64,000 nucleotides of DNA. Origin: Candidatus Doudnabacteria bacterium. GTDB taxonomy: Bacteria; Patescibacteriota; Doudnabacteria; UBA920. The position numbers and the translations under genes were made by a program. The notes beneath the pieces were generated by a model. It was not told the DNA's origin and searched no databases. It saw only the letters and a list, made by a program, of their open reading frames with translations. Below are positions 2,958 through 36,450 of the stretch, piece after piece (position 1 is the first letter of the stretch; every line of letters starts with the position of its first letter). The stretch lies in contig JACRDK010000030.1 in the NCBI GenBank assembly GCA_016218585.1, positions 24,277 to 88,276 of the forward strand. Reading direction: 5' to 3'.

Positions 2958-5900
2958 ATGAACAACATTTTTTCTAAGTTAAGCATAAAGGTCTCTGGCG
3001 CAATTGGCGTTTCAATTTTTTTGGTTGCCATCGCCGTAATCGGTTTGGCTCCTAGACAAGCCACCATTAGCCGTGCTGATGGTTGCAGTCCGGTTTACAC
3101 CTCGCCGGTTTTTAACCCGTACCCTGTTACCTGGGAAGATTCCGCAGGTTATAACTGTACGGATTTTGCCGTTCTTTCCGGTAATGTCCAAGGCGCAGGT
3201 TTTTGGACTGATAATTTTCAGGCCCAGCCAGGCGACAGTATTAGCATGAGAATTTACGTGCACAACGGCGCGGGCAGCAATTCCGGCGCAGTTATGTACG
3301 GTGTTAATGTTAATACCAATATAGATACCACAACCGGAACCAGCCACGTAATTACTACTACTTTAAGCGCCAGCAATGCCGCTTCTAAAAGCGGTAGTGT
3401 GACTATTAATACTCCGGCCGGCAGCCACTTGGAATTAGTTTCCGGTGATACCAGCTTTGCGGTTGGCGATATGCAGCCGTGCTTTGAGTATTCGAAAGCT
3501 TTTCGGTTTACTTTGAAAGTCGTTGCTGATACTGTTGTTACTCCTCCTCCGGCAGAAACTGTAAGCGGGCAAATTTCCTCTTCTTTGGGAATTTGTAAAG
3601 CCAATGGCTTATACGATGCTAATGTTTCCTGGAATACTAACGCTTCCCAGGCCTTAGTCACTGTTTCCGATCCGAATTTAAACTCCGGCAACTATTACGA
3701 CAATGACAAAGTTTATAGCTACAGCAAAACTAGCAATGAAACCGCAAGTTGGTTAGCTCCTAATACCGCTTACCGTTTTACTTTGTGGTCAATTGACCCA
3801 AGCGGTACAGACCATAGCTTCCGCGACTTAAGCAATAACATTGTTAATGTTAAAGCTGTAAGACTTTATGAAACTTGGGTAACCGCCGGCGCTTCTTGCA
3901 GCCAGGTTACGCCTCCTCCGGCTAATGTTACCGGAACTATTTCCACTTCTCTTGGTATTTGTAAAGCCAATGGTTTATACAATGCCAACGTTTCCTGGAA
4001 TACCAATGCCACTCAAGGTTTGGTTACTGTTTCTGATCCTAACTTAAAATCCGGAGACTACTACGATAACGATAAAATTTATAGCACAGCCGAAACCAGC
4101 AACGAAACTGCTGATTGGTTAGCTCCGTTAACAGCATATCGCTTTACTTTGTGGTCAATTGACCCAAATGGCGTTAGCCACACTTTCCGCGATATGAGCA
4201 ACAATGTTGTAACTTACAAAGTTACCCGTTTGCAGGAATCTTGGGTAACCGCCGGCGCTTCTTGCGACCAGGTTACTCCTCCTCCGGCTAACATTACAGG
4301 AACTATTAATTCTTCTCTTGGCATTTGTAAAGCCAATGGTTTGTACAATGCCAACGTTTCCTGGAATACCAACGCGACTCAGCCGCTTGTTACCGTAAGC
4401 AACCCGCCTGCTAATTCCAATAATAACTACGACAACGATAAATTTTATAGCACCACTAAAACCGGTAATGAAACTGCTGATTGGTTAACCCCAAATACAG
4501 CTTATCGCTTTACTTTGTGGGCTATTGACCCAAATGGCGTAAACCACACTTTCCGTGATTTGAACAATAACGTTGTAACTTACAAAGTTACTCGTTTGCA
4601 GGAAACTTGGGTTACAGCCGGAAATACTTGTATAGATAACCCGCCGACTTATGAAAATGTTGTTTGTAGCGTAAGCCCATCTAACTTAAATGTTGGCCAG
4701 AGCGCTACCTTTACCGCAGACAAAGGCAATGGTACTTATGCTTGGTCTGTTACTGGAGGCTCAGTAACTTCCAGCAATCAAAAAACATTTATTAGCACCT
4801 TCAACAACGCCGGGGCATATATTGCCACCGTGTCCAGCAACGGCAAAACCGCCAGCTGTACTGTTCAGGTAGTTAATGACAATGTTTGTGTAGCAAACAC
4901 CAACTATTATTTAAACGCCACCGCTCCTGCAAAACAAGGAACGGGGTATACTGTAAAATTATCTTGGGGTTTTGATGGTAATCATCAAATTAAATTAACC
5001 CAGGTAAGCTCGGACGGTAGCGAATTAACTTTGGCTACCAGCCCGGACAAAACCGGAAGTTTAAATGTCTTTAATTTACAAGCAGGTAAAACTTATACAT
5101 TTAAAATGTATGATATTGACCCGACTTGTGGAAAGTTTTTAACTTCAACTCAGGTTGTAGTTCAGTCAAATCCGGATCAGTTAGTCTGTACATCCGATAG
5201 CTCTTCCTATAGAGTCGGCGACACCGCTGTCTTTAGAGCCAATGGCGGCAGCGGCAGTTATTCCTGGTCCGGCACCGGCAACCCGGTTTCCGGCACCGGT
5301 TCAGTATTTAATACTTCTTACAACACCGCTGGTAATAAGACTGTTACTGTAACCAGCGCCGACGGGCAAACCGCTCAGTGTAGCACAGTTGTTAATACTG
5401 TTGTTACTGAAAACGGCCAGGTTCGCTTAACCAAAGAAGTAAGAAACATCACCAACAGCGAAACTGCTTTTGCCCACGCGACCTCCGCCAAGCAAAACGA
5501 CACTGTTGAATATCGCATTAAAGTTTGGGCCGGCACTTCCGTAACCTTAACTAATGTTATAGTCAACGACAGCTTTGCTTCCGGTCTTTCTTACATAGAT
5601 AACTCTTTATTTGTAGACGGCACATCTCACGCGGCTGGTTTAACTTCCGGCGGCCTTACCTTTACTTCCGTTGGCCAAACGCCGTTGGTAATTATTTACC
5701 GCGCTAAAGTTACCGCCACTATGGGAACTATTGTAAACACCGCCCAGGCTGTAGCTTCCAACGCTACCAACACTGCTGTTGACCAGGCTTTGGTAAATGT
5801 TGCTTATGTTAATCCGGGACAGCCTTCCTTGTCTATTATTAAACAAGTGAAGAATGTTACCCAGAACACCAACTATGATACTTCGGTTTTGGCTAATAAA

Positions 5901-7289
5901 AATGACGTTGTTAAATACCAGGTCATTATAAAAAATGTCGGCCAAGCTACCGCCAAGAATGTTTTCTTTAACGACAGCAATCCAGCCCAGGTCCAGCCGT
6001 TAACCGGCCTTACTGTCTCCATTGCTTACACCGGCGGCATTCCTGCCGGAGTTGCTTTGGGTGATTTAGCCGCAGGCGCTACCGTGACTATTACTTATCA
6101 GGGAACTGTGAAAGTTGACAGCGGCACTATATTAAACGTAGCCACCGCTTCTTCCGACAACGCAACCAGCCAGAATGCTTCCGCAACAGTAGTTGTTAAT
6201 ACTCAAAACAACAACGGCGGCAACAGCAACTACAACTATTGCGTTAACTATTCCTGCAATACCACAATCAACAACACTACAAACACAACCAACACCACAA
6301 CCACAAATAATAACTACACTTACAACAACTACAGCTACGTTTACATTAACAGCACCGGCAATACTGTACCGGCTAATCAATATAGCCAGTTAAGCATTAC
6401 CAAATCTGTTAGAACTGTAAATAATGGTACTTACCAAAACAGCGTAAACGTAAACAATGGCGATACCGTTGAGTTCGAAATTGTGGTTACTAACTCCGGC
6501 AATCAAAACATAAACAATGTCCGCTTAACCGACAATTTGCCGAGCGGCTTGAATCTGGTAAACGGCAGCGTGCGCGTAGACGGATCTTACGTCTCCAGCA
6601 GCAACCTTTACAGCGGAATGTATTTGGGCAGTTTGTCTACCGGCCAGCAAAAGCGCATTAACTTCCAGGCCACAGTAAACAATTCTAATTCCAGCATTCA
6701 AAATATTGCTATGGTTTCCGGCGACAACGCTTCTTCCGTTCAGGATGATGCCTGGGTGTTTACAAATACGGGTTCTGTCCAGGGCGGCAATGTAAGCCTT
6801 ACTTACAGCAAGCGCGCCATTAACGAAACCAAGAGCCAGGACGCGACTTCTGTAGTTGCCTCCAAGGAAGATTACATTACCTACACCTTAACCGCTTCCA
6901 ACAACGGCAACACTCCGGCCAACAACTTCATTATTACCGATGATTTGTCCCAGGTCTTGCCATATGCCGACATTGTCGACAACGGCGGCGGCAGCGTGAA
7001 CGGAAATGTAATTTCCTTCCCGGGCCTTACTGTTCCGGCTTACGGATCTGTTTCCAGAAGCTTTAAAGTTAGAGTTAAATATTCTTTGGCTGATAACTTG
7101 GCCTATGTTATGACTAATACTTACGGCAACACCTTAAATATTAGAATTAATAACCCGCAGGTTTTGGGAGCCTTTGTTGCTCCGAAGACCGGTGCGGAAA
7201 CCGGCGCCTTTGCTTTCTCCGGATTGTTAACCGCCGCCGCAGCCTTGTTTAAGCGCAGAAAAGAAATTCTAAAGTTAATCTTCACCTAA
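2958..7289 (+). CDS. Giant cell-surface protein (1443 aa): signal anchor, three tandem roughly 120-aa repeats, multiple DUF11-like conserved-repeat domains, Asn/Thr-rich low-complexity region, C-terminal tripartite sorting signal (APKTG/AETG motif, hydrophobic stretch, KRRKE tail)
   Basis: N-terminal TM IGVSIFLVAIAVIGLA. Three near-identical repeats TPPPA..SLGICKANGLY.ANVSWNTNA...AYRFTLWSIDP. DUF11-like units such as VEYRIKVWAGTSVTLTNVIVNDSF, VKYQVIIKNVGQATAKNVFFND and VEFEIVVTNSGNQNINNVRLTDNLP. C-terminus FVAPKTGAETGAFAFSGLLTAAAALFKRRKEILK resembles LPXTG/LAXTG-type cell-wall sorting signals. Confidence 0.85.
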   Translation: MNNIFSKLSIKVSGAIGVSIFLVAIAVIGLAPRQATISRADGCSPVYTSPVFNPYPVTWEDSAGYNCTDFAVLSGNVQGAGFWTDNFQAQPGDSISMRIYVHNGAGSNSGAVMYGVNVNTNIDTTTGTSHVITTTLSASNAASKSGSVTINTPAGSHLELVSGDTSFAVGDMQPCFEYSKAFRFTLKVVADTVVTPPPAETVSGQISSSLGICKANGLYDANVSWNTNASQALVTVSDPNLNSGNYYDNDKVYSYSKTSNETASWLAPNTAYRFTLWSIDPSGTDHSFRDLSNNIVNVKAVRLYETWVTAGASCSQVTPPPANVTGTISTSLGICKANGLYNANVSWNTNATQGLVTVSDPNLKSGDYYDNDKIYSTAETSNETADWLAPLTAYRFTLWSIDPNGVSHTFRDMSNNVVTYKVTRLQESWVTAGASCDQVTPPPANITGTINSSLGICKANGLYNANVSWNTNATQPLVTVSNPPANSNNNYDNDKFYSTTKTGNETADWLTPNTAYRFTLWAIDPNGVNHTFRDLNNNVVTYKVTRLQETWVTAGNTCIDNPPTYENVVCSVSPSNLNVGQSATFTADKGNGTYAWSVTGGSVTSSNQKTFISTFNNAGAYIATVSSNGKTASCTVQVVNDNVCVANTNYYLNATAPAKQGTGYTVKLSWGFDGNHQIKLTQVSSDGSELTLATSPDKTGSLNVFNLQAGKTYTFKMYDIDPTCGKFLTSTQVVVQSNPDQLVCTSDSSSYRVGDTAVFRANGGSGSYSWSGTGNPVSGTGSVFNTSYNTAGNKTVTVTSADGQTAQCSTVVNTVVTENGQVRLTKEVRNITNSETAFAHATSAKQNDTVEYRIKVWAGTSVTLTNVIVNDSFASGLSYIDNSLFVDGTSHAAGLTSGGLTFTSVGQTPLVIIYRAKVTATMGTIVNTAQAVASNATNTAVDQALVNVAYVNPGQPSLSIIKQVKNVTQNTNYDTSVLANKNDVVKYQVIIKNVGQATAKNVFFNDSNPAQVQPLTGLTVSIAYTGGIPAGVALGDLAAGATVTITYQGTVKVDSGTILNVATASSDNATSQNASATVVVNTQNNNGGNSNYNYCVNYSCNTTINNTTNTTNTTTTNNNYTYNNYSYVYINSTGNTVPANQYSQLSITKSVRTVNNGTYQNSVNVNNGDTVEFEIVVTNSGNQNINNVRLTDNLPSGLNLVNGSVRVDGSYVSSSNLYSGMYLGSLSTGQQKRINFQATVNNSNSSIQNIAMVSGDNASSVQDDAWVFTNTGSVQGGNVSLTYSKRAINETKSQDATSVVASKEDYITYTLTASNNGNTPANNFIITDDLSQVLPYADIVDNGGGSVNGNVISFPGLTVPAYGSVSRSFKVRVKYSLADNLAYVMTNTYGNTLNIRINNPQVLGAFVAPKTGAETGAFAFSGLLTAAAALFKRRKEILKLIFT
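3540..4620 (+). repeat. Three tandem roughly 360-bp direct repeats, highly similar at nucleotide level, inside the giant surface protein gene
   Basis: Repeat starts at about 3540, 3900 and 4260 all read gttac(t/g)cctcctccggc...ggaactatt...tctcttgg(t/c)atttgtaaagccaatgg(t/c)ttatacaatgc; the protein units are about 120 aa each. Confidence 0.8.
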
Positions 7290-7670: not shown

Positions 7671-8846
7671 ATGGACAACACATACTTGCAGGAGCTAATA
7701 AACGAAACCAAACTTCGGGGCGGCGGGTTATTGCTTAATTATGAAGATAAGCCGGCTGTGGTTGTTTTAACCGTGGATAAATATAACAGCTTGCTAGAGG
7801 GCCAAGAGTTAGGAATTAAGAATCAAGCGGTTGAAATTCAAACAAGCCCCAAGGCAGAACTAGCCAGTACCCAATCTGTAAAAAAAGTTTTGGTTACCGG
7901 GGGAGCCGGATATATTGGCGGGCATTTGGTTCGGGAGTTAATTAAGCAGAATTATGAAGTGGTGGTTTTAGACAATCTTTCCACCGGCCGCAGGGAGAAT
8001 ATTGATCCGAAGGCAATTTTTGTGGAAGGAGATTTAGCCGATGTAAATTTGCTCCGCGATATTTTTGCCAATAACAACATATCCGCGGTTTTTCATATGG
8101 CCGCCAGCCTGGAAGTGGAAGAGTCTGTTAGGGAACCGGAAAAATATTTTAAAAATAATACCCAAAACACTATCGGACTTTTAGAAGTTATGAAAGAGTT
8201 GGGGATTAACAAAATAATTTTTTCCTCAACCGCCGCGGTTTATGGCGAAAATGCCAAAGTTCCGATTAACGAAAACTCCCCGCTGCATCCCAATAATCCG
8301 TACGGCTCCAGCAAGCTGCTCACCGAAAGGAATATTAAATATTTTTGCGAGTACCTTGGTTTTAAGGCCGTAATTTTCCGCTATTTTAACGCCTGCGGTT
8401 TTGACGAAGAAGCCAATATTTTGCCGACCCACCAGTCTCACTTAATTTACAAAGTTATGCAGGTTGCCAAAGGAGCCGAACCGATTTTAAAAATTTTTGG
8501 CAACGACTACGAAACATTTGACGGTACCTGCATTCGCGATTATGTCCATGTGCTGGATATTGTCTTGCCGCATATTTTGGCTTTGGAAAAGTTAAATGGA
8601 GATTTGAAATTTGAAATTATAAACATTGGCACCGGCACAGGCTTAAGCGTTGCCCAAATTGTCAACGGAGCTTCAGAAATCATCGGCCGCATTATTCCCA
8701 TGGAAACCGCGCCGCGCCGCGCCGGGGACGCGCCGGCAACGGTTGCCGACAACTCCAAACTGGTTAACTTGCTGGGCTATGAGCCTAAATTTAGCAGCCT
8801 AAATAACATACTTACCAGCAGCTGGGAAGTTCTGAAAAAAGATTAA
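7671..8846 (+). CDS. galE: UDP-glucose 4-epimerase / NAD-dependent epimerase-dehydratase with a roughly 70-aa N-terminal extension resembling a Phd/YefM antitoxin fold
   Basis: Rossmann motif VLVTGGAGYIGGHLV, catalytic YGSSKLLTE (YxxxK), C-terminal epimerase domain. N-terminal KPAVVVLTVDKYNSLLEGQEL resembles YefM [20 protein letters not shown]. No in-frame stop or alternative start between extension and epimerase core. Confidence 0.85.
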   Translation: MDNTYLQELINETKLRGGGLLLNYEDKPAVVVLTVDKYNSLLEGQELGIKNQAVEIQTSPKAELASTQSVKKVLVTGGAGYIGGHLVRELIKQNYEVVVLDNLSTGRRENIDPKAIFVEGDLADVNLLRDIFANNNISAVFHMAASLEVEESVREPEKYFKNNTQNTIGLLEVMKELGINKIIFSSTAAVYGENAKVPINENSPLHPNNPYGSSKLLTERNIKYFCEYLGFKAVIFRYFNACGFDEEANILPTHQSHLIYKVMQVAKGAEPILKIFGNDYETFDGTCIRDYVHVLDIVLPHILALEKLNGDLKFEIINIGTGTGLSVAQIVNGASEIIGRIIPMETAPRRAGDAPATVADNSKLVNLLGYEPKFSSLNNILTSSWEVLKKD

Positions 8847-13566: not shown

Positions 13567-13590
13567 ATTAACAAGAGTTGTGAATAAATA

Positions 13591-13624
13591 ACCCCCCCAA
13601 GACAAGTATGTCTTGGGGGGTTTG
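13591..13624 (+). terminator. Rho-independent terminator (12-bp stem) after the repeat-protein gene
   Basis: acccccccaagaca agta tgtcttggggggtttg. Confidence 0.8.
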
Positions 13625-13694
13625 CTTTGACTTTATTGAGGTTTTATAATAAGATTTTGCTACGTTTAGATTTTCAAAAAGGAGGTGTAATCGA

Positions 13695-14282
13695 ATGATT
13701 GCACTGATTAGTGTTACTGACAAAACCGGCATTCAGGAATTTGCCGCCACCCTTTCAGCATTGGGATTCGATCTGGTTTCTACCGGCGGGACAGCAGACA
13801 CTCTTCGCCTCGCCGGGCTTAAAGTAAAAGATGTTTCGGAGCTGACGGGCGTGCCCGCAATGATGGGCGGCAGAGTGAAGACCTTGGATTACCACATTCA
13901 CGCCGGAATCTTGGCGGATCGGGACAATCCGGAGCACATGGCCGATGCCGCAAAGTATGGCATCGAGATGATTGACCTGGTTGTGGTTAACCTCTATGAT
14001 TTTTTGGGTACAGCGGAAGATCCGGATGTTTCTTTGCCGGAACTTACCGAAAGCATCGACATTGGCGGACACACTCTGGTCCGTGCCGCGGCTAAGAACT
14101 GGAAGCATGTCGGTGTGGTGGTTAACCTGCAGGACTACGACCGGATTTCTGAAGAGCTGGTGCAGCGGGGTGGCTGGTTGAGCAGCGGCACCAAGTTAAG
14201 TTTGGCCATTGAGGCCCTCGATGCCGTCGCTTGTTATGACAGGTCTATTCCAGACGTTCTCAGGGACCGTGCCGGCTACTAG
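13695..14282 (+). CDS. purH: Stand-alone IMP cyclohydrolase / MGS-like domain corresponding to the N-terminal half of PurH (AICAR transformylase domain absent); GC-rich, with degenerate conserved motifs, so a possible decaying horizontally acquired fragment
   Basis: ALISVTDKTGIQEFAATLSALGFDLVSTGGTADTL, GRVKTLDYHIHAGILADRDNPEH, VVVNLYDF, IDIGGHTLVRAAAKNWKHVGVVVNLQDY align to the PurH IMPCH domain (actinobacterial-type HAGLLAD). The conserved KTLHP and NLYPF motifs are altered to KTLDY and NLYDF. About 55% GC against about 40% in neighbours. Own promoter-like TTGACT/TATAAT and a strong SD aaggaggtg 7 nt before ATG. Confidence 0.8.
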   Translation: MIALISVTDKTGIQEFAATLSALGFDLVSTGGTADTLRLAGLKVKDVSELTGVPAMMGGRVKTLDYHIHAGILADRDNPEHMADAAKYGIEMIDLVVVNLYDFLGTAEDPDVSLPELTESIDIGGHTLVRAAAKNWKHVGVVVNLQDYDRISEELVQRGGWLSSGTKLSLAIEALDAVACYDRSIPDVLRDRAGY

Positions 14283-14305
14283 CAAATCACAGCAGTCTAT
14301 CTAAC

Positions 14306-14345
14306 AAAGCGGTTCCCGGAAATAGTGTTCGGGAACCGCTTTTGC
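14306..14345 (+). terminator. Rho-independent terminator after the purH-fragment cassette
   Basis: aaagcggttcccg gaaatagtgtt cgggaaccgcttttgc. Confidence 0.8.
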
Positions 14346-28733: not shown

Positions 28734-28829
28734 TAATTTTAACACTTGGTGAAAGTTATTAAGTTATCCAGCTCATCAAGTTTGTGCGTATTAACTTTAT
28801 AAACTTTATAAATTTTAAGAACTATTTTT

Positions 28830-29219
28830 ATGGCTCGTATCGCAGGAATTAACATACCAAACGAAAAACGCATCGAAGCGTCTTTGCCTTACATTTACGG
28901 AGTCGGCTTAAGCCTTTCCAAAAAAATTCTGGCCGCTGCAAAAGTTGATCCGAACAAGCGCACCAAAGATTTAAGCGAAGCAGAACTCGGACGCATTCGC
29001 GAATTTATTGAAAAGAGCTTCAAAGTCGAAGGTGAATTAAGACAGCAGGTTCTGTTAAACATCAAGCGCTTAAAAGAAATCGGCGCTTATCGCGGTATTC
29101 GCCACATTAGAGGTTTACCGGTAAGAGGACAGAGAACCAAGACCAATTCCCGCACCCGCCGCGGCAACGTTCGTAAGACCGCCGGATCCGGACGCAAGAA
29201 CGCATCGGAAAAGACCTAA
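28830..29219 (+). CDS. rpsM: 30S ribosomal protein S13
   Basis: [26 protein letters not shown]...[18 protein letters not shown]. Confidence 0.95.
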
Positions 29220-32268: not shown

Positions 32269-32823
32269 ATGCCTACTAAGTCTACAACACCCAAAACAGC
32301 TACCAAGGCTGTAAAAAAGCCAAAAGCACCGGTTCATAAAAAACCGGCAGCAGTTGCTGAAAAAGCAGTTGCCGAAGAAGTCGTAACAACAGCACCGGCT
32401 GTTTTAGAGCTGGGCGAAAAGAAACATTTGGCCAAAGGTAAATATATTTTTGCCACCGGCAGAAGAAAGACCGCCATTGCCAATGTTCGCTTGTTCGAAG
32501 GAAAAGGGGACAGTATGGCTAACAAAAAGCCAGTTGAACAGTATTTCGGCTACGCTTTCTTTAATGAAGAAATTAAGAAACCATTTGAAGTTACAGGTTT
32601 GCTGAATAACTACCACTACGTTTCTCATTTAAACGGCGGCGGTATGCACTCTCAGGCCCAAGCTTTAAGACATGGAATTTCCATTGCTTTGAGCAAGTTG
32701 TCTGAAGAAGTCCGCAAAGTGTTAAAGAAGAATGGTTTGCTTACCCGCGATGACCGTAAAAAAGAAAGAAAGAAGCCAGGCTTGAAAAGAGCCCGCCGCT
32801 CCCCACAGTGGGCAAAACGTTAA
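32269..32823 (+). CDS. rpsI: 30S ribosomal protein S9 with about 55-aa Lys/Ala-rich N-terminal extension
   Basis: YFATGRRKTAIANVRL...GGGMHSQAQALRHGISIAL...RDDRKKERKKPGLKRARRSPQWAKR. Confidence 0.95.
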   Translation: MPTKSTTPKTATKAVKKPKAPVHKKPAAVAEKAVAEEVVTTAPAVLELGEKKHLAKGKYIFATGRRKTAIANVRLFEGKGDSMANKKPVEQYFGYAFFNEEIKKPFEVTGLLNNYHYVSHLNGGGMHSQAQALRHGISIALSKLSEEVRKVLKKNGLLTRDDRKKERKKPGLKRARRSPQWAKR

Positions 32824-32876
32824 TTTTGACCACCCTGAGCAGAGTCGAATGGATGGGCAAAACGTTAATCTACATT

Positions 32877-32908
32877 CAAAACCACCCGAGAAATCGGGTG
32901 GTTTTTTG
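32877..32908 (+). terminator. Rho-independent terminator closing the ribosomal-protein/rpoA operon
   Basis: aaaaccacccga gaaa tcgggtggttttttgg. Confidence 0.85.
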
Positions 32909-32992
32909 GCTTTACATTACTAGTTTTTAGTGATATCATTTAATGTCTTTCAAGATGTAAGCTTGAATGACCGTTTGGACAAGGAGTGGTAA

Positions 32993-33343
32993 ATGAAGAC
33001 TTGGCATATCGCGTTTTTTGTAATAGCCGCTTCGGTTGCTGTGCTTCTCTACTATCATCAACCGATGCATGCCAGACCCGTCAACCAAGAAGTTGCGGAA
33101 GAGCTCCGATCGCTGAACACTGGGGATCTTCTCGTCGACAATGTCGGGGAAGTTTCTGCTGTTATGGGTCATGTCGGCCACGACATGATTGAACTGCGGA
33201 ACACCCGCGATACTCGTTATGAGATGAACGTCGACACTCTGGCGATGTTGCCGGAGAGGATACAGATTGTCCGCCGGGGCACCGCCAGCTATGAAAACTG
33301 CGCCGCGGCCTATATCAAGAAGGAGCGGTGCAAAATCCAGTAG
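32993..33343 (+). CDS. Hypothetical small protein (116 aa) with N-terminal signal/TM segment, in a GC-rich cassette
   Basis: ORF with about 53% GC against an AT-rich background. Upstream TTTACA-N17-TATCAT promoter-like element and SD aaggag 8 nt before ATG. N-terminal IAFFVIAASVAVLLYY hydrophobic segment. Followed by a 9-bp GC-stem terminator. Confidence 0.5.
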   Translation: MKTWHIAFFVIAASVAVLLYYHQPMHARPVNQEVAEELRSLNTGDLLVDNVGEVSAVMGHVGHDMIELRNTRDTRYEMNVDTLAMLPERIQIVRRGTASYENCAAAYIKKERCKIQ

Positions 33344-33373
33344 TCCGGCGCTTTACGCCAGCTGTCTCGCTTT

Positions 33374-33415
33374 AACACCCCCTTTGCCGCAAGGCTCTGG
33401 GGGTGTTACTTTTTG
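33374..33415 (+). terminator. Rho-independent terminator after the GC-rich small ORF
   Basis: aacaccccc tttgccgcaaggctct gggggtgtt actttttg. Confidence 0.8.
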
Positions 33416-33475
33416 CTCAAATTTGAGTATGATATAATGTAGATAATAATTAAAAAACTAAAAACAACAAAATCT

Positions 33476-34246
33476 ATGGAAAATGTCTTGCCAAAATGGC
33501 TGGTTACAGGCTTGGGCGGTTTGCTTATCGCCTTTGTCGCTTTACTAGTCATCCAACAGTCTTACAATGTTAAGACTTTAGTCAAAAATCAAAAGCCAAC
33601 CAATACCATCTCAGTTTCCGCTGAGGGTAAAATAAAAGCAGTGCCGGATTTGGCCACTGTAAGCATTGGTGTTATGTCGCAGGGCGCAACAGCCGCTGCG
33701 GTTAAAGATTCCAACAATGGAAAAATCAACAAAATTATAGACTTTATAAAAGCGCAAGGAATACCAGCCGAAGACATTACCACTTCCCAGTTCAGCTTTT
33801 ATCCGCAGCAGGATTGGCAGAACGGCAAGGGGACTATTATTGGCTACCAAAGCGACCAGACTGTTTCTGTAAAAGTAAAAGGCGTAGATAAAACCCAGGA
33901 CGTTTTAGAAAAAGTTTTGGATGGCGCGGTAAATAACGGCGCAAACCAAATCCAGGGTGTTTCTTTCAGCTTTGAGAAGCCGGAAGATGTGCAGCAGGAA
34001 GCCAGAAAACAGGCTATAGACAACGCAAAAACCAAAGCTCAAGGATTGGCTCAGGAAGCCGGCTTAACTCTTGGAAAAGTTGTGAGCATTTCCGAAACCA
34101 ACTCCGCTATGGGTTCTCCTGTTATGTATAATGCGGTTGCCAGCGGCTTAGGCGGCGGCGGAATGGACAAATCCATTGCTCCTAATGTTGAACCTGGAAG
34201 CCAGGACATTACTGAAAGCATGACTGTGGTGTTTGAAGTCAAATAA
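33476..34246 (+). CDS. SIMPL-domain (DUF541) periplasmic / immunogenic protein family
   Basis: N-terminal TM; KIKAVPDLATVSIGVMSQGATAAAVKDSNNGKINKIIDFIKAQGIPAEDITTSQFSFYPQ and the C-terminal region are typical of the SIMPL family. Confidence 0.8.
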   Translation: MENVLPKWLVTGLGGLLIAFVALLVIQQSYNVKTLVKNQKPTNTISVSAEGKIKAVPDLATVSIGVMSQGATAAAVKDSNNGKINKIIDFIKAQGIPAEDITTSQFSFYPQQDWQNGKGTIIGYQSDQTVSVKVKGVDKTQDVLEKVLDGAVNNGANQIQGVSFSFEKPEDVQQEARKQAIDNAKTKAQGLAQEAGLTLGKVVSISETNSAMGSPVMYNAVASGLGGGGMDKSIAPNVEPGSQDITESMTVVFEVK

Positions 34247-34287
34247 AAAACAGATTTACAGATACCTACAGATAAAAACTACCACCC

Positions 34288-34650
34288 TTTTGGGGTGGTA
34301 GTTTTTATTGCGCCAAGCAAACTCATAAGCCGAATTCTGTTTTAAAATAATCATCTATCTTGTCCCGATGTTGCCATCGGGATCGAGCAGCCTACCAAAT
34401 TTGGCCTTGCACTCAAGTAAGGATTTGGCCGTTTCACTCCCGCATTGCTGCGGGAACAGTCCAGCTCTTTTTTGCAAAAGGGTTGGACTACTTAGCCTTT
34501 CGGCATCAGTCGTTTCTGTTCGCACCTCTAGGATTACTCCCGACGGGAATTACCCGCTACCATTCTTGATAACTCTATAGAGGTTATCAAATAAGTGTTC
34601 GGACTTTCCTCCCCGCCCTTTGGATTGCATTAAAGACAATTTTGAATGCG
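34288..34650 (-). ncRNA. rnpB: RNase P RNA (bacterial type), minus strand; exact ends approximate
   Basis: The reverse complement contains the universally conserved P4 strand GGGCGGGGAGGAAAGUCCGAAC, GGGAGUGAAACGGCC, GCAAGGCCAAAU...GGUAGGCUGCUCGAUCC and the 3' P4 partner ACAGAAUUCGGCUUAU, in canonical order. GC-rich relative to its surroundings. The track ORFs at 34360-34580 lie within it and are non-coding artefacts. Confidence 0.8.
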
Positions 34651-34941
34651 CTTGCGTAAGTGCCCCCACGAGCTACCATATTGCTTAAGCTTAATTTCTC
34701 TTATTAGCGCATCCTTTTTATTAGCGTACGCTTCGTAATAAACTAATTTAAACGGAGCGTAAGCTTTTGTCGCTGTTTCTTTAGAAGCATTATGTTGAGA
34801 AAATCTTGCTTTTAAATCACCGGTTTGACCGATGTAAATAAAATCAGACTTTATACTCTTAATTATGTAAACATAATGCATATGCAATCCAAAGAGCGGG
34901 GCGATTATTCGGTTTGCTTGGAGCAACCAGTATAATAGCAT
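34630..34941 (-). CDS. GIY-YIG nuclease-domain small protein
   Basis: YVYIIKSIKSDFIYIGQTGDLKARFSQHN (GIY..YIG..R..H.N core); 103 aa; its 3' end abuts or overlaps the 5' end of rnpB on the same strand. Confidence 0.7.
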   Translation of the reverse strand: MLLYWLLQANRIIAPLFGLHMHYVYIIKSIKSDFIYIGQTGDLKARFSQHNASKETATKAYAPFKLVYYEAYANKKDALIREIKLKQYGSSWGHLRKRIQNCL

Positions 34942-35016
34942 TATTTGACATTAATGTCAATATATAGTGTAATATAACCCTTTTTCTTAAGAAAAAGACG
35001 TGGTATAATAAGGAGT

Positions 35017-36450
35017 ATGAAAAAGACCGAACTTCTTTTTAACTTAATTTCCATTCCGGTGGACGCTATTTCCTTGCTTTGTGCGGGAATTGCGTCTTTT
35101 TATTTGCGCCAAAAAACCACCACCATTGTCGGGCCAATTATTTACCAATTGGAAATAAACAGTTTCCTGTCCGTGGTCTACAAAATAATTTTGTTTTTAA
35201 TTATCCTGTTTGCGCTGCTTGGTTTGTATAACTTAAAGGGCACCCGCAAATTTATTTCTGAGTTGGGCAGGATTGTCGTCGGCGAGTCGCTCGGGCTTTT
35301 GCTAGTTATATTATTATTCTTTTTTAATCAAAATATTTTCCCATCCAGGTTCATAATTTTGGCTACTTGGGGTTTAGGGATAGTTTTTGTTATTTGCGGC
35401 CGTTTAATTTTAAAACTTTTCCAGACATTTTTGTTTGCTAAAAATATCGGCCTGCATAAATTAATTGTTATAAAAGGCGGCGTGGAGCAGCCGGTTATTG
35501 AGAGCGTTTATAAAAACAGGCGCAATGGCTACGAAATTGTAGCCGAATTGCCGGTCAATGAAAAACTTTTGGAAAAACTGGAAGAGTTTTACAACCGCGG
35601 ACAAATAGACGAAATTCTCCAAACTAACGCCGGATTGGGTGACGCTGATAATTTAAAATTGGTTCAGTTTGCCCGCGGCAAAGGGCTAAAGTTTAGTTTT
35701 GTTCCAAATTTGTTCGAGGTGCAGCGCAACATTATTGAAACAGAAAGCGTGAATGGCTTGCCGGTAATTAGTTTAAAAAATACCCCGTTGGACGGCTGGG
35801 GAAAAGTTATAAAAAGAATTTTGGATGTTGTTGTGAGTTTTGTTTGCCTGTTGTTAACCTCGCCGCTTTTTTTAATAATTACAATTGCAATTAAACTTGA
35901 TTCCAAAGGCAAAGCAATATACTCCGCCTTGCGCGGAGGCCGCGGAAAAGATTTTCGGTTTTACAAATTCCGCAGCATGTATCAGCACTTAAGCGTTGGA
36001 AAAGAATATGGCGGGGAAAACGCGGAAAAAATCAGGCAGGAGCTGTGGCATAAAAATGACCGCGGCGGGGAAAATGGCCCGTTCTTAAAAATTAAGGACG
36101 ACCCCAGGGTTACTAAAGTTGGGAAGTTTTTGCGCCGCAGCAAGTTAGACGAAATTCCGCAGTTTTGGAATGTATTAAAAGGGGATATGAGCATGGTTGG
36201 TCCCAGGGCTCATGTTTTGGACGAAGTTGAACGTTATAGGAACCGCTATCCAAGAATGTTTAGCATTAAGCCGGGAATTTTTGGGCTTTCCCAAATTGCC
36301 CAGGTATCCTGGCCGGACTTGCCGTTTGAAGAAGAAATTCGCCTAAATACTTTTTACATAGAAAATTGGTCCGTCTGGCTGGACATAAAAATTTTGGCAA
36401 AGACTTTTTGGCTGTTATTTTTTGCCAAAAAACCAAAAACCGATTATTAA
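35017..36450 (+). CDS. Polyprenyl-phosphate sugar phosphotransferase (initiating glycosyltransferase, WbaP/WcaJ-like)
   Basis: N-terminal TM bundle, CoA-binding-like central region, C-terminal bacterial sugar transferase domain (MSMVGPRAHVLDE..., PGIFGLSQIAQVSWPDLPFEEEIRLN...YIENWSVWLDIKIL). Confidence 0.85.
   Translation: MKKTELLFNLISIPVDAISLLCAGIASFYLRQKTTTIVGPIIYQLEINSFLSVVYKIILFLIILFALLGLYNLKGTRKFISELGRIVVGESLGLLLVILLFFFNQNIFPSRFIILATWGLGIVFVICGRLILKLFQTFLFAKNIGLHKLIVIKGGVEQPVIESVYKNRRNGYEIVAELPVNEKLLEKLEEFYNRGQIDEILQTNAGLGDADNLKLVQFARGKGLKFSFVPNLFEVQRNIIETESVNGLPVISLKNTPLDGWGKVIKRILDVVVSFVCLLLTSPLFLIITIAIKLDSKGKAIYSALRGGRGKDFRFYKFRSMYQHLSVGKEYGGENAEKIRQELWHKNDRGGENGPFLKIKDDPRVTKVGKFLRRSKLDEIPQFWNVLKGDMSMVGPRAHVLDEVERYRNRYPRMFSIKPGIFGLSQIAQVSWPDLPFEEEIRLNTFYIENWSVWLDIKILAKTFWLLFFAKKPKTDY

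Follow-up and report, generated by a model that had tools for sequence, protein, structure and literature searches.

A GC-rich orphan gene cassette between rpsI and a SIMPL gene in a Candidatus Doudnabacteria genome

Introduction

The closest described counterparts of the locus reported here are phage morons and genomic islets, hot spots of the defence-island type, integrative elements that target gene 3' ends, and integron cassettes. Phage morons, in the definition attributed to Hendrix and colleagues, reportedly have their own promoter and terminator and a deviant composition. The attC site of integrons is an imperfect palindrome of about 57-140 bp with the ends RYYYAAC ... GTTRRRY. On the protein side, the nearest comparison is with SH3-like and Tudor-like small barrels, which are five-stranded, strongly bent antiparallel barrels of ~50-60 residues.

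Here we describe ORF116, a gene that lies between the ribosomal protein gene rpsI and a SIMPL/DUF541 gene in the window, by which we mean the whole 64-kb stretch of DNA that was analysed. Its product is listed in NCBI as a hypothetical protein of a Candidatus Doudnabacteria MAG (HY918_05385). We found no paper on this type of locus downstream of rpsI, and the sequence family of ORF116 is previously undescribed. In most respects ORF116 is a fairly ordinary orphan accessory gene; its surroundings and its predicted fold are what we set out below.

Results

Anatomy of the rpsI-SIMPL interval

The elements of the interval are as follows, where L002, L003, L004 and L020 are related loci taken up in a later section.

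32269-32823, plus strand: rpsI (ribosomal protein S9; Pfam Ribosomal_S9, 1.2e-38), left anchor of the variable interval
32878-32909, plus strand: terminator of the ribosomal-protein operon (terminator 1), 12-bp stem at 32878-32905, -19.6 kcal/mol, z -5.75 against shuffles
32910-33400, plus strand: window-specific inserted segment of ~490 bp, right limit +/- a few bases, with no counterpart in L004, L002 or L003
32911-32939, plus strand: promoter-like site by consensus match, TTTACA (32911-32916), 17-nt spacer, TATCAT (32934-32939), with TG upstream
32981-32986, plus strand: Shine-Dalgarno AAGGAG, 6 nt upstream of the ATG
32993-33343, plus strand: ORF116, 351 bp, 116 codons, 116 aa
33373-33416, plus strand: cassette terminator (terminator 2), hairpin at 33373-33408, -24.7 kcal/mol, z -4.9
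33430-33438, plus strand: TGATATAAT, the extended -10 element of SIMPL and conserved right anchor, found upstream of SIMPL in L002, L003, L004 and L020
33476-34246, plus strand: SIMPL/DUF541 gene (Pfam SIMPL, 1.5e-56), conserved right neighbour

rpsI is the last gene of the block rpoA-rplQ-rplM-rpsI. The hairpin of terminator 1 directly precedes the run UUUUUU, and the 10-bp GC-rich outer stem of terminator 2 is followed by the U-run ACUUUUUG; both have the structure of intrinsic terminators. Native sequence resumes within the 3' arm of terminator 2. The promoter-like site has an extended -10 element, matches the sigma-70 consensus at 10 of 12 positions and ranks second best in 6 kb. Sites with at least 9 of 12 matches are not enriched in that 6 kb (13 found, 10.6 expected in shuffles), and as a candidate promoter of the cassette the site is suggestive only: it is a consensus match that is statistically not distinctive. 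We infer that the unit is expressed.

A sequence-only reading of this DNA had already named the terminators, the promoter-like element, the Shine-Dalgarno sequence and the 351-bp frame, and all of them are present. Its description of the product also stands, with a single N-terminal hydrophobic segment (residues 4-21), two cysteines near the C-terminus (Cys103 and Cys113) and a GC content of the gene near 53%. All 3,773 bp of an independent assembly, Logan contig L001 (run SRR12113407), match the window exactly (32342-36114). Because this contig spans both junctions of the inserted segment exactly, chimeric junctions are unlikely.

ORF116 is a conserved coding gene with few relatives

ORF116 is a genuine coding gene and is conserved. 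When 1.84 billion representatives of ~15 billion proteins were searched exhaustively with HMMER, three true relatives emerged, P0002 (56% identity, E 6e-25), P0003 (38%, 7e-13) and P0005 (29%, 1.7e-4), and a profile search added P0006 (50%, E 1e-31). The family thus has five members, ORF116 and four other clusters among the 1.84 billion representatives; a word-indexed protein search returned the ORF116 protein alone. Between the five genes, identity by codon position follows the order 2 > 1 >> 3, with position 3 near saturation. Between the window and L016, the contig that carries P0002, nucleotide identity is 0.81 at position 2, 0.74 at position 1 and 0.32 at position 3. This pattern is the signature of selection on the protein. 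One further candidate, P0004 (854 aa, nine weak repeats), reads as repetitive out-of-frame sequence and is probably spurious.

Searches of ORF116 against Pfam, NCBIfam, PHROGs and PADLOC gave no family above threshold, and a sequence-profile search of the PDB gave a chance match only (E 0.088). A scan of JGI metagenomes recovered two further copies of the L016 sequence and nothing else.

The genomic contexts of the family differ. P0006 lies in the island of L020, in the same rpsI-SIMPL interval as ORF116. P0002 adjoins HisRS, HIT and PD-(D/E)XK genes, and the HisRS of this contig is closest to Doudnabacteria and Patescibacteria sequences. P0003 adjoins a DinB gene, and P0005 is near TspO, DUF2177 and DUF1295 genes. 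At least two of the four other clusters sit in Doudnabacteria-like contigs. No neighbour gene is common to any of the five contexts, and because no neighbouring gene recurs between family members, the ORF116 protein probably acts alone. Genes of the homologue contexts (L016, L017, L019 and L020) and of L002 have no counterparts in the window.

The closest homologue, at 5523-5919 of L016, appears frameshifted in the region coding for the transmembrane helix; L021 and L022 carry the same sequence. Translation of an upstream frame gives MGGGFAY..., similar to internal residues 36-42 of P0005 (MGGGIAY), a possible true start. Because three assemblies agree on this sequence, it is probably a genuine pseudogene or an alternative start.

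A predicted membrane anchor and small beta-barrel

AlphaFold2 modelled the protein with a mean pLDDT of 85 from the five-sequence alignment, and above 90 for residues 31-116; from the single ORF116 sequence the pLDDT was 47. The model has helices at 4-21, 32-39 and 98-108 and strands at 46-48, 54-60, 65-70, 75-79 and 91-93, the latter forming a five-strand barrel (46-93) with the bend and the length of an SH3-like or Tudor-like fold. Foldseek searches of the PDB and BFVD gave no match at E <= 1e-3, and the fold matches were generic. Conserved across the family are the hydrophobic N-terminal helix, the motif RPV(N/D)(Q/E) right after it (RPVNQ at this juxtamembrane position in the window protein), a GD motif and Arg94. 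The C-terminal motif CAAxYIxKxRC and the cysteine pair are found in four of the five members, P0005 having neither. We consider it likely that the protein consists of a membrane anchor joined to a small beta-barrel.

The N-terminal helix reaches a Kyte-Doolittle hydropathy of 1.8-2.7 over 19 residues. No signal-peptidase motif is conserved at its end: the window protein has M-H-A|R and the homologues have M-H-M|H, L-T-P|R and M-Q-P|R, with no AXA. Because AXA is not conserved in the family, an uncleaved signal anchor is more likely than a cleaved signal peptide, and the term "signal-anchored", applied to the protein in the sequence-only reading, is a reasonable one. Three homologues carry 2, 2 and 1 lysines or arginines on the N side of the helix and 1, 1 and 3, respectively, on its C side; the window protein has one on each side, that on the N side (Lys2) being counted by eye. 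This charge bias would slightly favour an N-in orientation in two of the four members and the opposite in one, which is a weak indication. Because it is weak, the ORF116 domain may be cytoplasmic; in view of the conserved cysteine pair, it would more likely face outward.

The interval carries different cargo in related genomes

Relatives were retrieved through the downstream SIMPL/DUF541 gene. Four of them (L002, L003, L004 and L020) share the gene order rplQ-rplM-rpsI ... SIMPL, and none of the four carries ORF116 as in the window. The content of the interval in each relative is given below.

L004 (1.2-Mb contig): 117 bp, empty; a terminator, then the TGATATAAT promoter of SIMPL, with no ORF116 remnant
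L002: an 87-aa membrane ORF and a 49-aa ORF
L003 (3839-5816): a complete type II restriction-modification pair, with a 260-aa endonuclease and a 395-aa methyltransferase
L020: a ~10-kb mosaic with 13 called genes
L005: other genes upstream of SIMPL; the contig ends before any rpsI

PADLOC assigns the L003 pair to REase_II (6.5e-124) and MTase_II (1e-178). The L020 island includes genes for a zeta toxin (Pfam 3.2e-34), a NYN nuclease (found in Pfam, and by PADLOC as NYN at 3.2e-6), a cold-shock-domain protein, a thioredoxin, an ArsP permease, an LD-carboxypeptidase and a rhodanese, along with an unannotated ArsR-like ORF read by inspection. L005 probably holds different cargo in the same interval.

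Both edges of the insertion can be placed. On the left, blastn homology between the window and L002 covers the end of rpsI and terminator 1 and ends at 32908. On the right, native sequence in the window resumes at GGTGTTACTTTTTGCTC ... TGATATAATGTA, which corresponds to GGTGTAACATTTTGGCTC ... TGATATAATGTA before SIMPL in L002, L003 and L004 (the GGTGTTACTTTTTGCTC/GGTGTAACATTTTGGCTC correspondence by eye).

The composition of ORF116 is atypical for the window. Its GC content is 52.7% and its GC3 62.4%, against means of 41.1% and 41.8% for 54 long window ORFs (GC3 z = +2.5) and a window average of 41% GC; only two other window ORFs equal it in compositional deviation. The four homologous genes have 51.6-52.7% GC in flanks of 36-45% GC. 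Third codon positions are saturated between family members (21-48% identity), and GC3 is still 56-63%. Saturated third positions with an undrifted GC3 argue that the genes reside in a GC-richer, unsampled gene pool or have been imported from one repeatedly. Recent import from GC-rich donors is what we infer; the donor pool itself is invisible, all known members sitting in a low-GC context.

The sequence-only reading had described the segment as a GC-rich cassette inserted just behind the ribosomal-protein operon, and had suggested looking for its presence or absence downstream of rpsI in relatives. The empty site of L004, the varied cargo and the deviant composition support that proposal, and conserved presence with native composition was not seen in the four relatives. 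The anatomy of the cassette and its insertion polymorphism are plain from these comparisons, and it is very likely that ORF116 is an accessory gene inserted at a hot spot.

An alternative to insertion is that ORF116 is an old, vertically inherited resident of the interval that was lost in L002, L003 and L004, its GC content reflecting gene-level constraint. Ancient presence with later losses has to be considered because the L020 interval contains a homologue, and the 50% identity of that homologue to ORF116 is not far below the identities of SIMPL (58%) and rpsI (67%) between L020 and the window. The family also appears confined to Doudnabacteria-like genomes, and the ribosome-binding block AAGGAGTGGTAAA is common to the window and the L020 homologue. 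However, the two closest relatives, L002 and L003 (84% SIMPL identity), do not have the gene, L004 has a compact spacer without any remnant, and the closest homologue (56%, in L016) is at an unrelated locus beside HisRS. A GC3 of 56-63% at saturated positions, in genomes with a GC3 of ~42%, is hard to reconcile with long residence, and the L020 gene itself lies in a compositional mosaic bounded by internal repeats. We regard vertical inheritance as unlikely.

ORF116 could also be a moron of a phage or other mobile element, or a defence gene, conferring superinfection exclusion or immunity to a membrane-targeting toxin. The cassette has a promoter-like site and a terminator of its own and a deviant composition, which are the properties given for phage morons above, and the hot spot carries a restriction-modification pair in L003 and a zeta toxin and NYN nuclease in L020. 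The best BFVD match is a 113-aa Erwinia phage protein that aligns over its full length (TM-score 0.60, E 2.6e-3); this match lies above 1e-3, however, and the phage protein is itself uncharacterised. No phage gene adjoins ORF116, a scan of IMG/VR found no member of the family, the best PHROGs match was weak and irrelevant (E 0.085), and PADLOC returned nothing. A defence or exclusion role is a reasonable minority view given the hot-spot cargo in relatives; as an account of ORF116, the moron or defence gene is distinctly unlikely.

Repeats at the rpsI 3' end

Ahead of the cassette the window has the 3' end of rpsI twice, as exact 16-bp copies (TGGGCAAAACGTTAAT) that are 29 bp apart and 45 bp from start to start.

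32809-32824, plus strand: first copy of the 16-bp rpsI 3' end
32854-32869, plus strand: second copy, in the same reading frame as the first

L002 has the same duplication (5231-5246 and about 5276-5291), both copies carrying the same two substitutions (TGGGCCAAGCGTTAAT), and it is absent from L003 and L004. The window duplication is older than the cassette and is not part of it. Because the copies are identical within each genome and yet the window and L002 differ at two positions, concerted change is suggested; the duplication could be an att-site scar or a product of gene conversion. A match to the rpsI-end core in IMG/VR was set aside as chance, since it consists of the last codons of an unrelated 76-aa ORF (...VVQWAKR*) in one GC-rich phage contig.

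L020 shows a more elaborate arrangement. A second rpsI 3' end with an ancestral-looking terminator is found at 5064-5120, 2.5 kb beyond the stop codon of the true rpsI; this second copy follows the zeta-toxin module, and its terminator resembles the native one of L004. The two L020 copies bracket a 2.5-kb cargo segment different from ORF116. Within 2498-8640 of L020 there are R1 repeats (3331-3598, 6065-6331 and a partial copy at 8574-8634) and R2 repeats of ~140 bp that end in CGCAGTGGGC (4935-5072 and 8431-8568). R1 and R2 bracket GC-rich cargo genes, including the ORF116 homologue, which one R2 copy directly follows. Neither repeat was found in a search of the window and all loci, so the module structure of L020 is not transferable to the window.

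The rpsI-end copies and the L020 repeats suggest repeated insertion into the 3' end of rpsI. We keep this reading at low probability because, in the window, ORF116 lies outside the repeats and neither R1 nor R2 occurs. In its broadest form it would describe a cassette exchange system of Doudnabacteria, as yet undescribed and without an integrase, whose attachment core is the terminal 16-18 bp of rpsI (CAGTGGGCNAARCGTTA). The duplicated cores of the window and L002, the displaced rpsI end of L020 and its GC-rich modules bounded by R1 and R2 would then be footprints of repeated capture, and the small surface beta-barrel of ORF116 would be one of the surface or defence functions exchanged. We hold such a system to be improbable.

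A narrower version, in which ORF116 is an integron-like or site-specific cassette at an att site of the rpsI 3' end and the downstream hairpin is the recombination site, could draw on the same duplicated ends (in the window and L002, with the second copy in L020) and on the R2 copy with its CGCAGTGGGC end immediately after the ORF116 homologue. However, direct repeats do not flank the insert in the window: the two copies enclose 29 bp, and ORF116 is downstream of both. R1 and R2 are confined to L020, and recombinase domains, including integrases, were found neither among the L020 island genes nor in seven Pfam-scanned window ORFs (ORF116 and six others). The hairpin, at 36 nt, is shorter than attC, and its ends, CTTTAAC ... 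GTTACTT, do not fit the attC consensus. We judge this version very improbable.

That ORF116 is not a gene at all, being a chance ORF in a GC-rich spacer or a product of chimeric assembly, has in its favour a database annotation of nothing beyond "hypothetical protein" and carries negligible probability against four homologous clusters, a protein-like substitution pattern, a confident structure prediction and identical junctions in an independent assembly.

Other features of the window

The window holds a second GC-rich unit with the same layout as the ORF116 cassette, at 13590-14345 (54% GC, GC3 61%). It comprises, in order, a terminator, TTGACT-17-TATAAT, AAGGAGG, a 195-aa ORF and a terminator. 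The ORF, which pairs an MGS-like domain with only the first ~60 residues of an AICARFT/IMPCHase domain, resembles a shortened PurH-like protein. The stretch 1100-2740 is the richest in GC of the whole window (up to 61%). It contains a 453-aa ORF (GTG start at 1307) with a weak PKD-domain match, a long palindrome upstream (1118-1156) and a hairpin downstream, and this ORF is probably another acquired gene.

Near the cassette, on the minus strand at 34310-34925, lies an RNase P RNA gene (RF00010), which the Rfam gathering scan missed because its 90.3 bits are below the threshold of 100. A TTGACA-17-TATTAT promoter is seen at 34960-34932. Compared with the aligned rnpB genes of L002, L004 and L005, helix P3 has a ~270-nt insertion in the window, flanked by P1 (CCAAGCAAAC / GUUUGCUUGG) and P2. 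The ends of the insertion pair in a closing stem of 20 bp (34882-34901 with 34611-34630) that appears in the minimum-free-energy fold (z -6.9), and inside it is an 83-codon GIY-YIG nuclease ORF (about 34630-34881; Pfam 4.9e-17). The GIY-YIG insert is absent from all relatives compared, and we found no paper on a protein gene or GIY-YIG nuclease in bacterial rnpB. For a bacterial RNase P RNA, a P3 helix that harbours a protein gene seems unusual.

Upstream of rpsM, at 28754-28862, an Alpha operon ribosome-binding-site leader (RF00140) matches with 40.3 bits; a ribosomal-protein autoregulatory element is thus present in a genome of the Candidate Phyla Radiation (CPR).

Discussion

Taken together, the explanation that we favour, with some reserve, is that ORF116 is a horizontally exchanged, stand-alone accessory unit that encodes a surface-displayed, non-catalytic binding barrel. 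The segment at ~32910-33400 would be a single-gene transcription unit with its own promoter-like site, ribosome-binding site and terminator. Its place of acquisition would be a hot spot of recombination that, in this Doudnabacteria-like CPR genome, is bounded by the terminator of rpsI and the promoter of SIMPL. Homologous recombination through conserved flanks after DNA uptake is the simplest route of acquisition.

In the product, an uncleaved N-terminal helix would anchor a bitopic membrane protein, and the remaining ~90 residues would fold into the small SH3/Tudor-like barrel with two helices as its cap. An outward-facing barrel is most likely, in which case the two C-terminal cysteines may form a disulfide. 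Because the barrel has no catalytic signature, action by binding is most likely, and the target at the cell surface might be part of the envelope, a protein that acts as partner, or an invading element. That binding at the cell surface is indeed the mode of action is a tentative proposal.

A genome of ~1 Mb in the CPR keeps a gene-exchange hot spot behind a core ribosomal operon, with five or six cargo states in six related genomes. The window and L004 provide a clean pair of filled and empty sites for studying how such genomes acquire DNA. The gene itself belongs to a tiny family (five clusters among ~15 billion proteins) with a confident predicted structure, and its product may be surface-exposed in organisms that are attached to other cells. 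If a role in host attachment or phage exclusion were shown, ORF116 would be of real interest for CPR biology.

The small barrels with which we compared the predicted domain were the capped Tudor of Sds3, FeoA, the C-terminal Tudor of UvrD/PcrA, the N-terminal domain of CarD, and DUF1653. ORF116 has no sequence similarity to these SH3/Tudor barrels (8-14% identity; no Pfam match). Whereas most of the barrel matches are cytoplasmic modules that bind nucleic acids or proteins, ORF116 is predicted to be membrane-anchored and probably extracytoplasmic, with a cysteine pair.

At the level of the locus, the second copy of the rpsI 3' end that the window, L002 and L020 each carry recalls the attL/attR sites of integrative elements that target gene 3' ends. 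Unlike at such elements, no integrase was found, and the window repeats are 29 bp apart with the cassette outside them. Phage morons and genomic islets resemble ORF116, which is likewise an autonomous unit between two terminators, 11 points of GC above its surroundings, and variably present at one fixed position among close relatives. Unlike morons, ORF116 is not in a recognisable prophage, and no phage homologue was found in PHROGs or IMG/VR; its neighbours, rpsI and SIMPL, are core chromosomal genes, and its host is a member of the CPR. Finally, although ORF116 differs from defence-island cargo in matching no known defence family in PADLOC, the site that it occupies is like hot spots of that type, in that a single interval carries restriction-modification, toxin-antitoxin, nuclease or orphan genes from one genome to the next.
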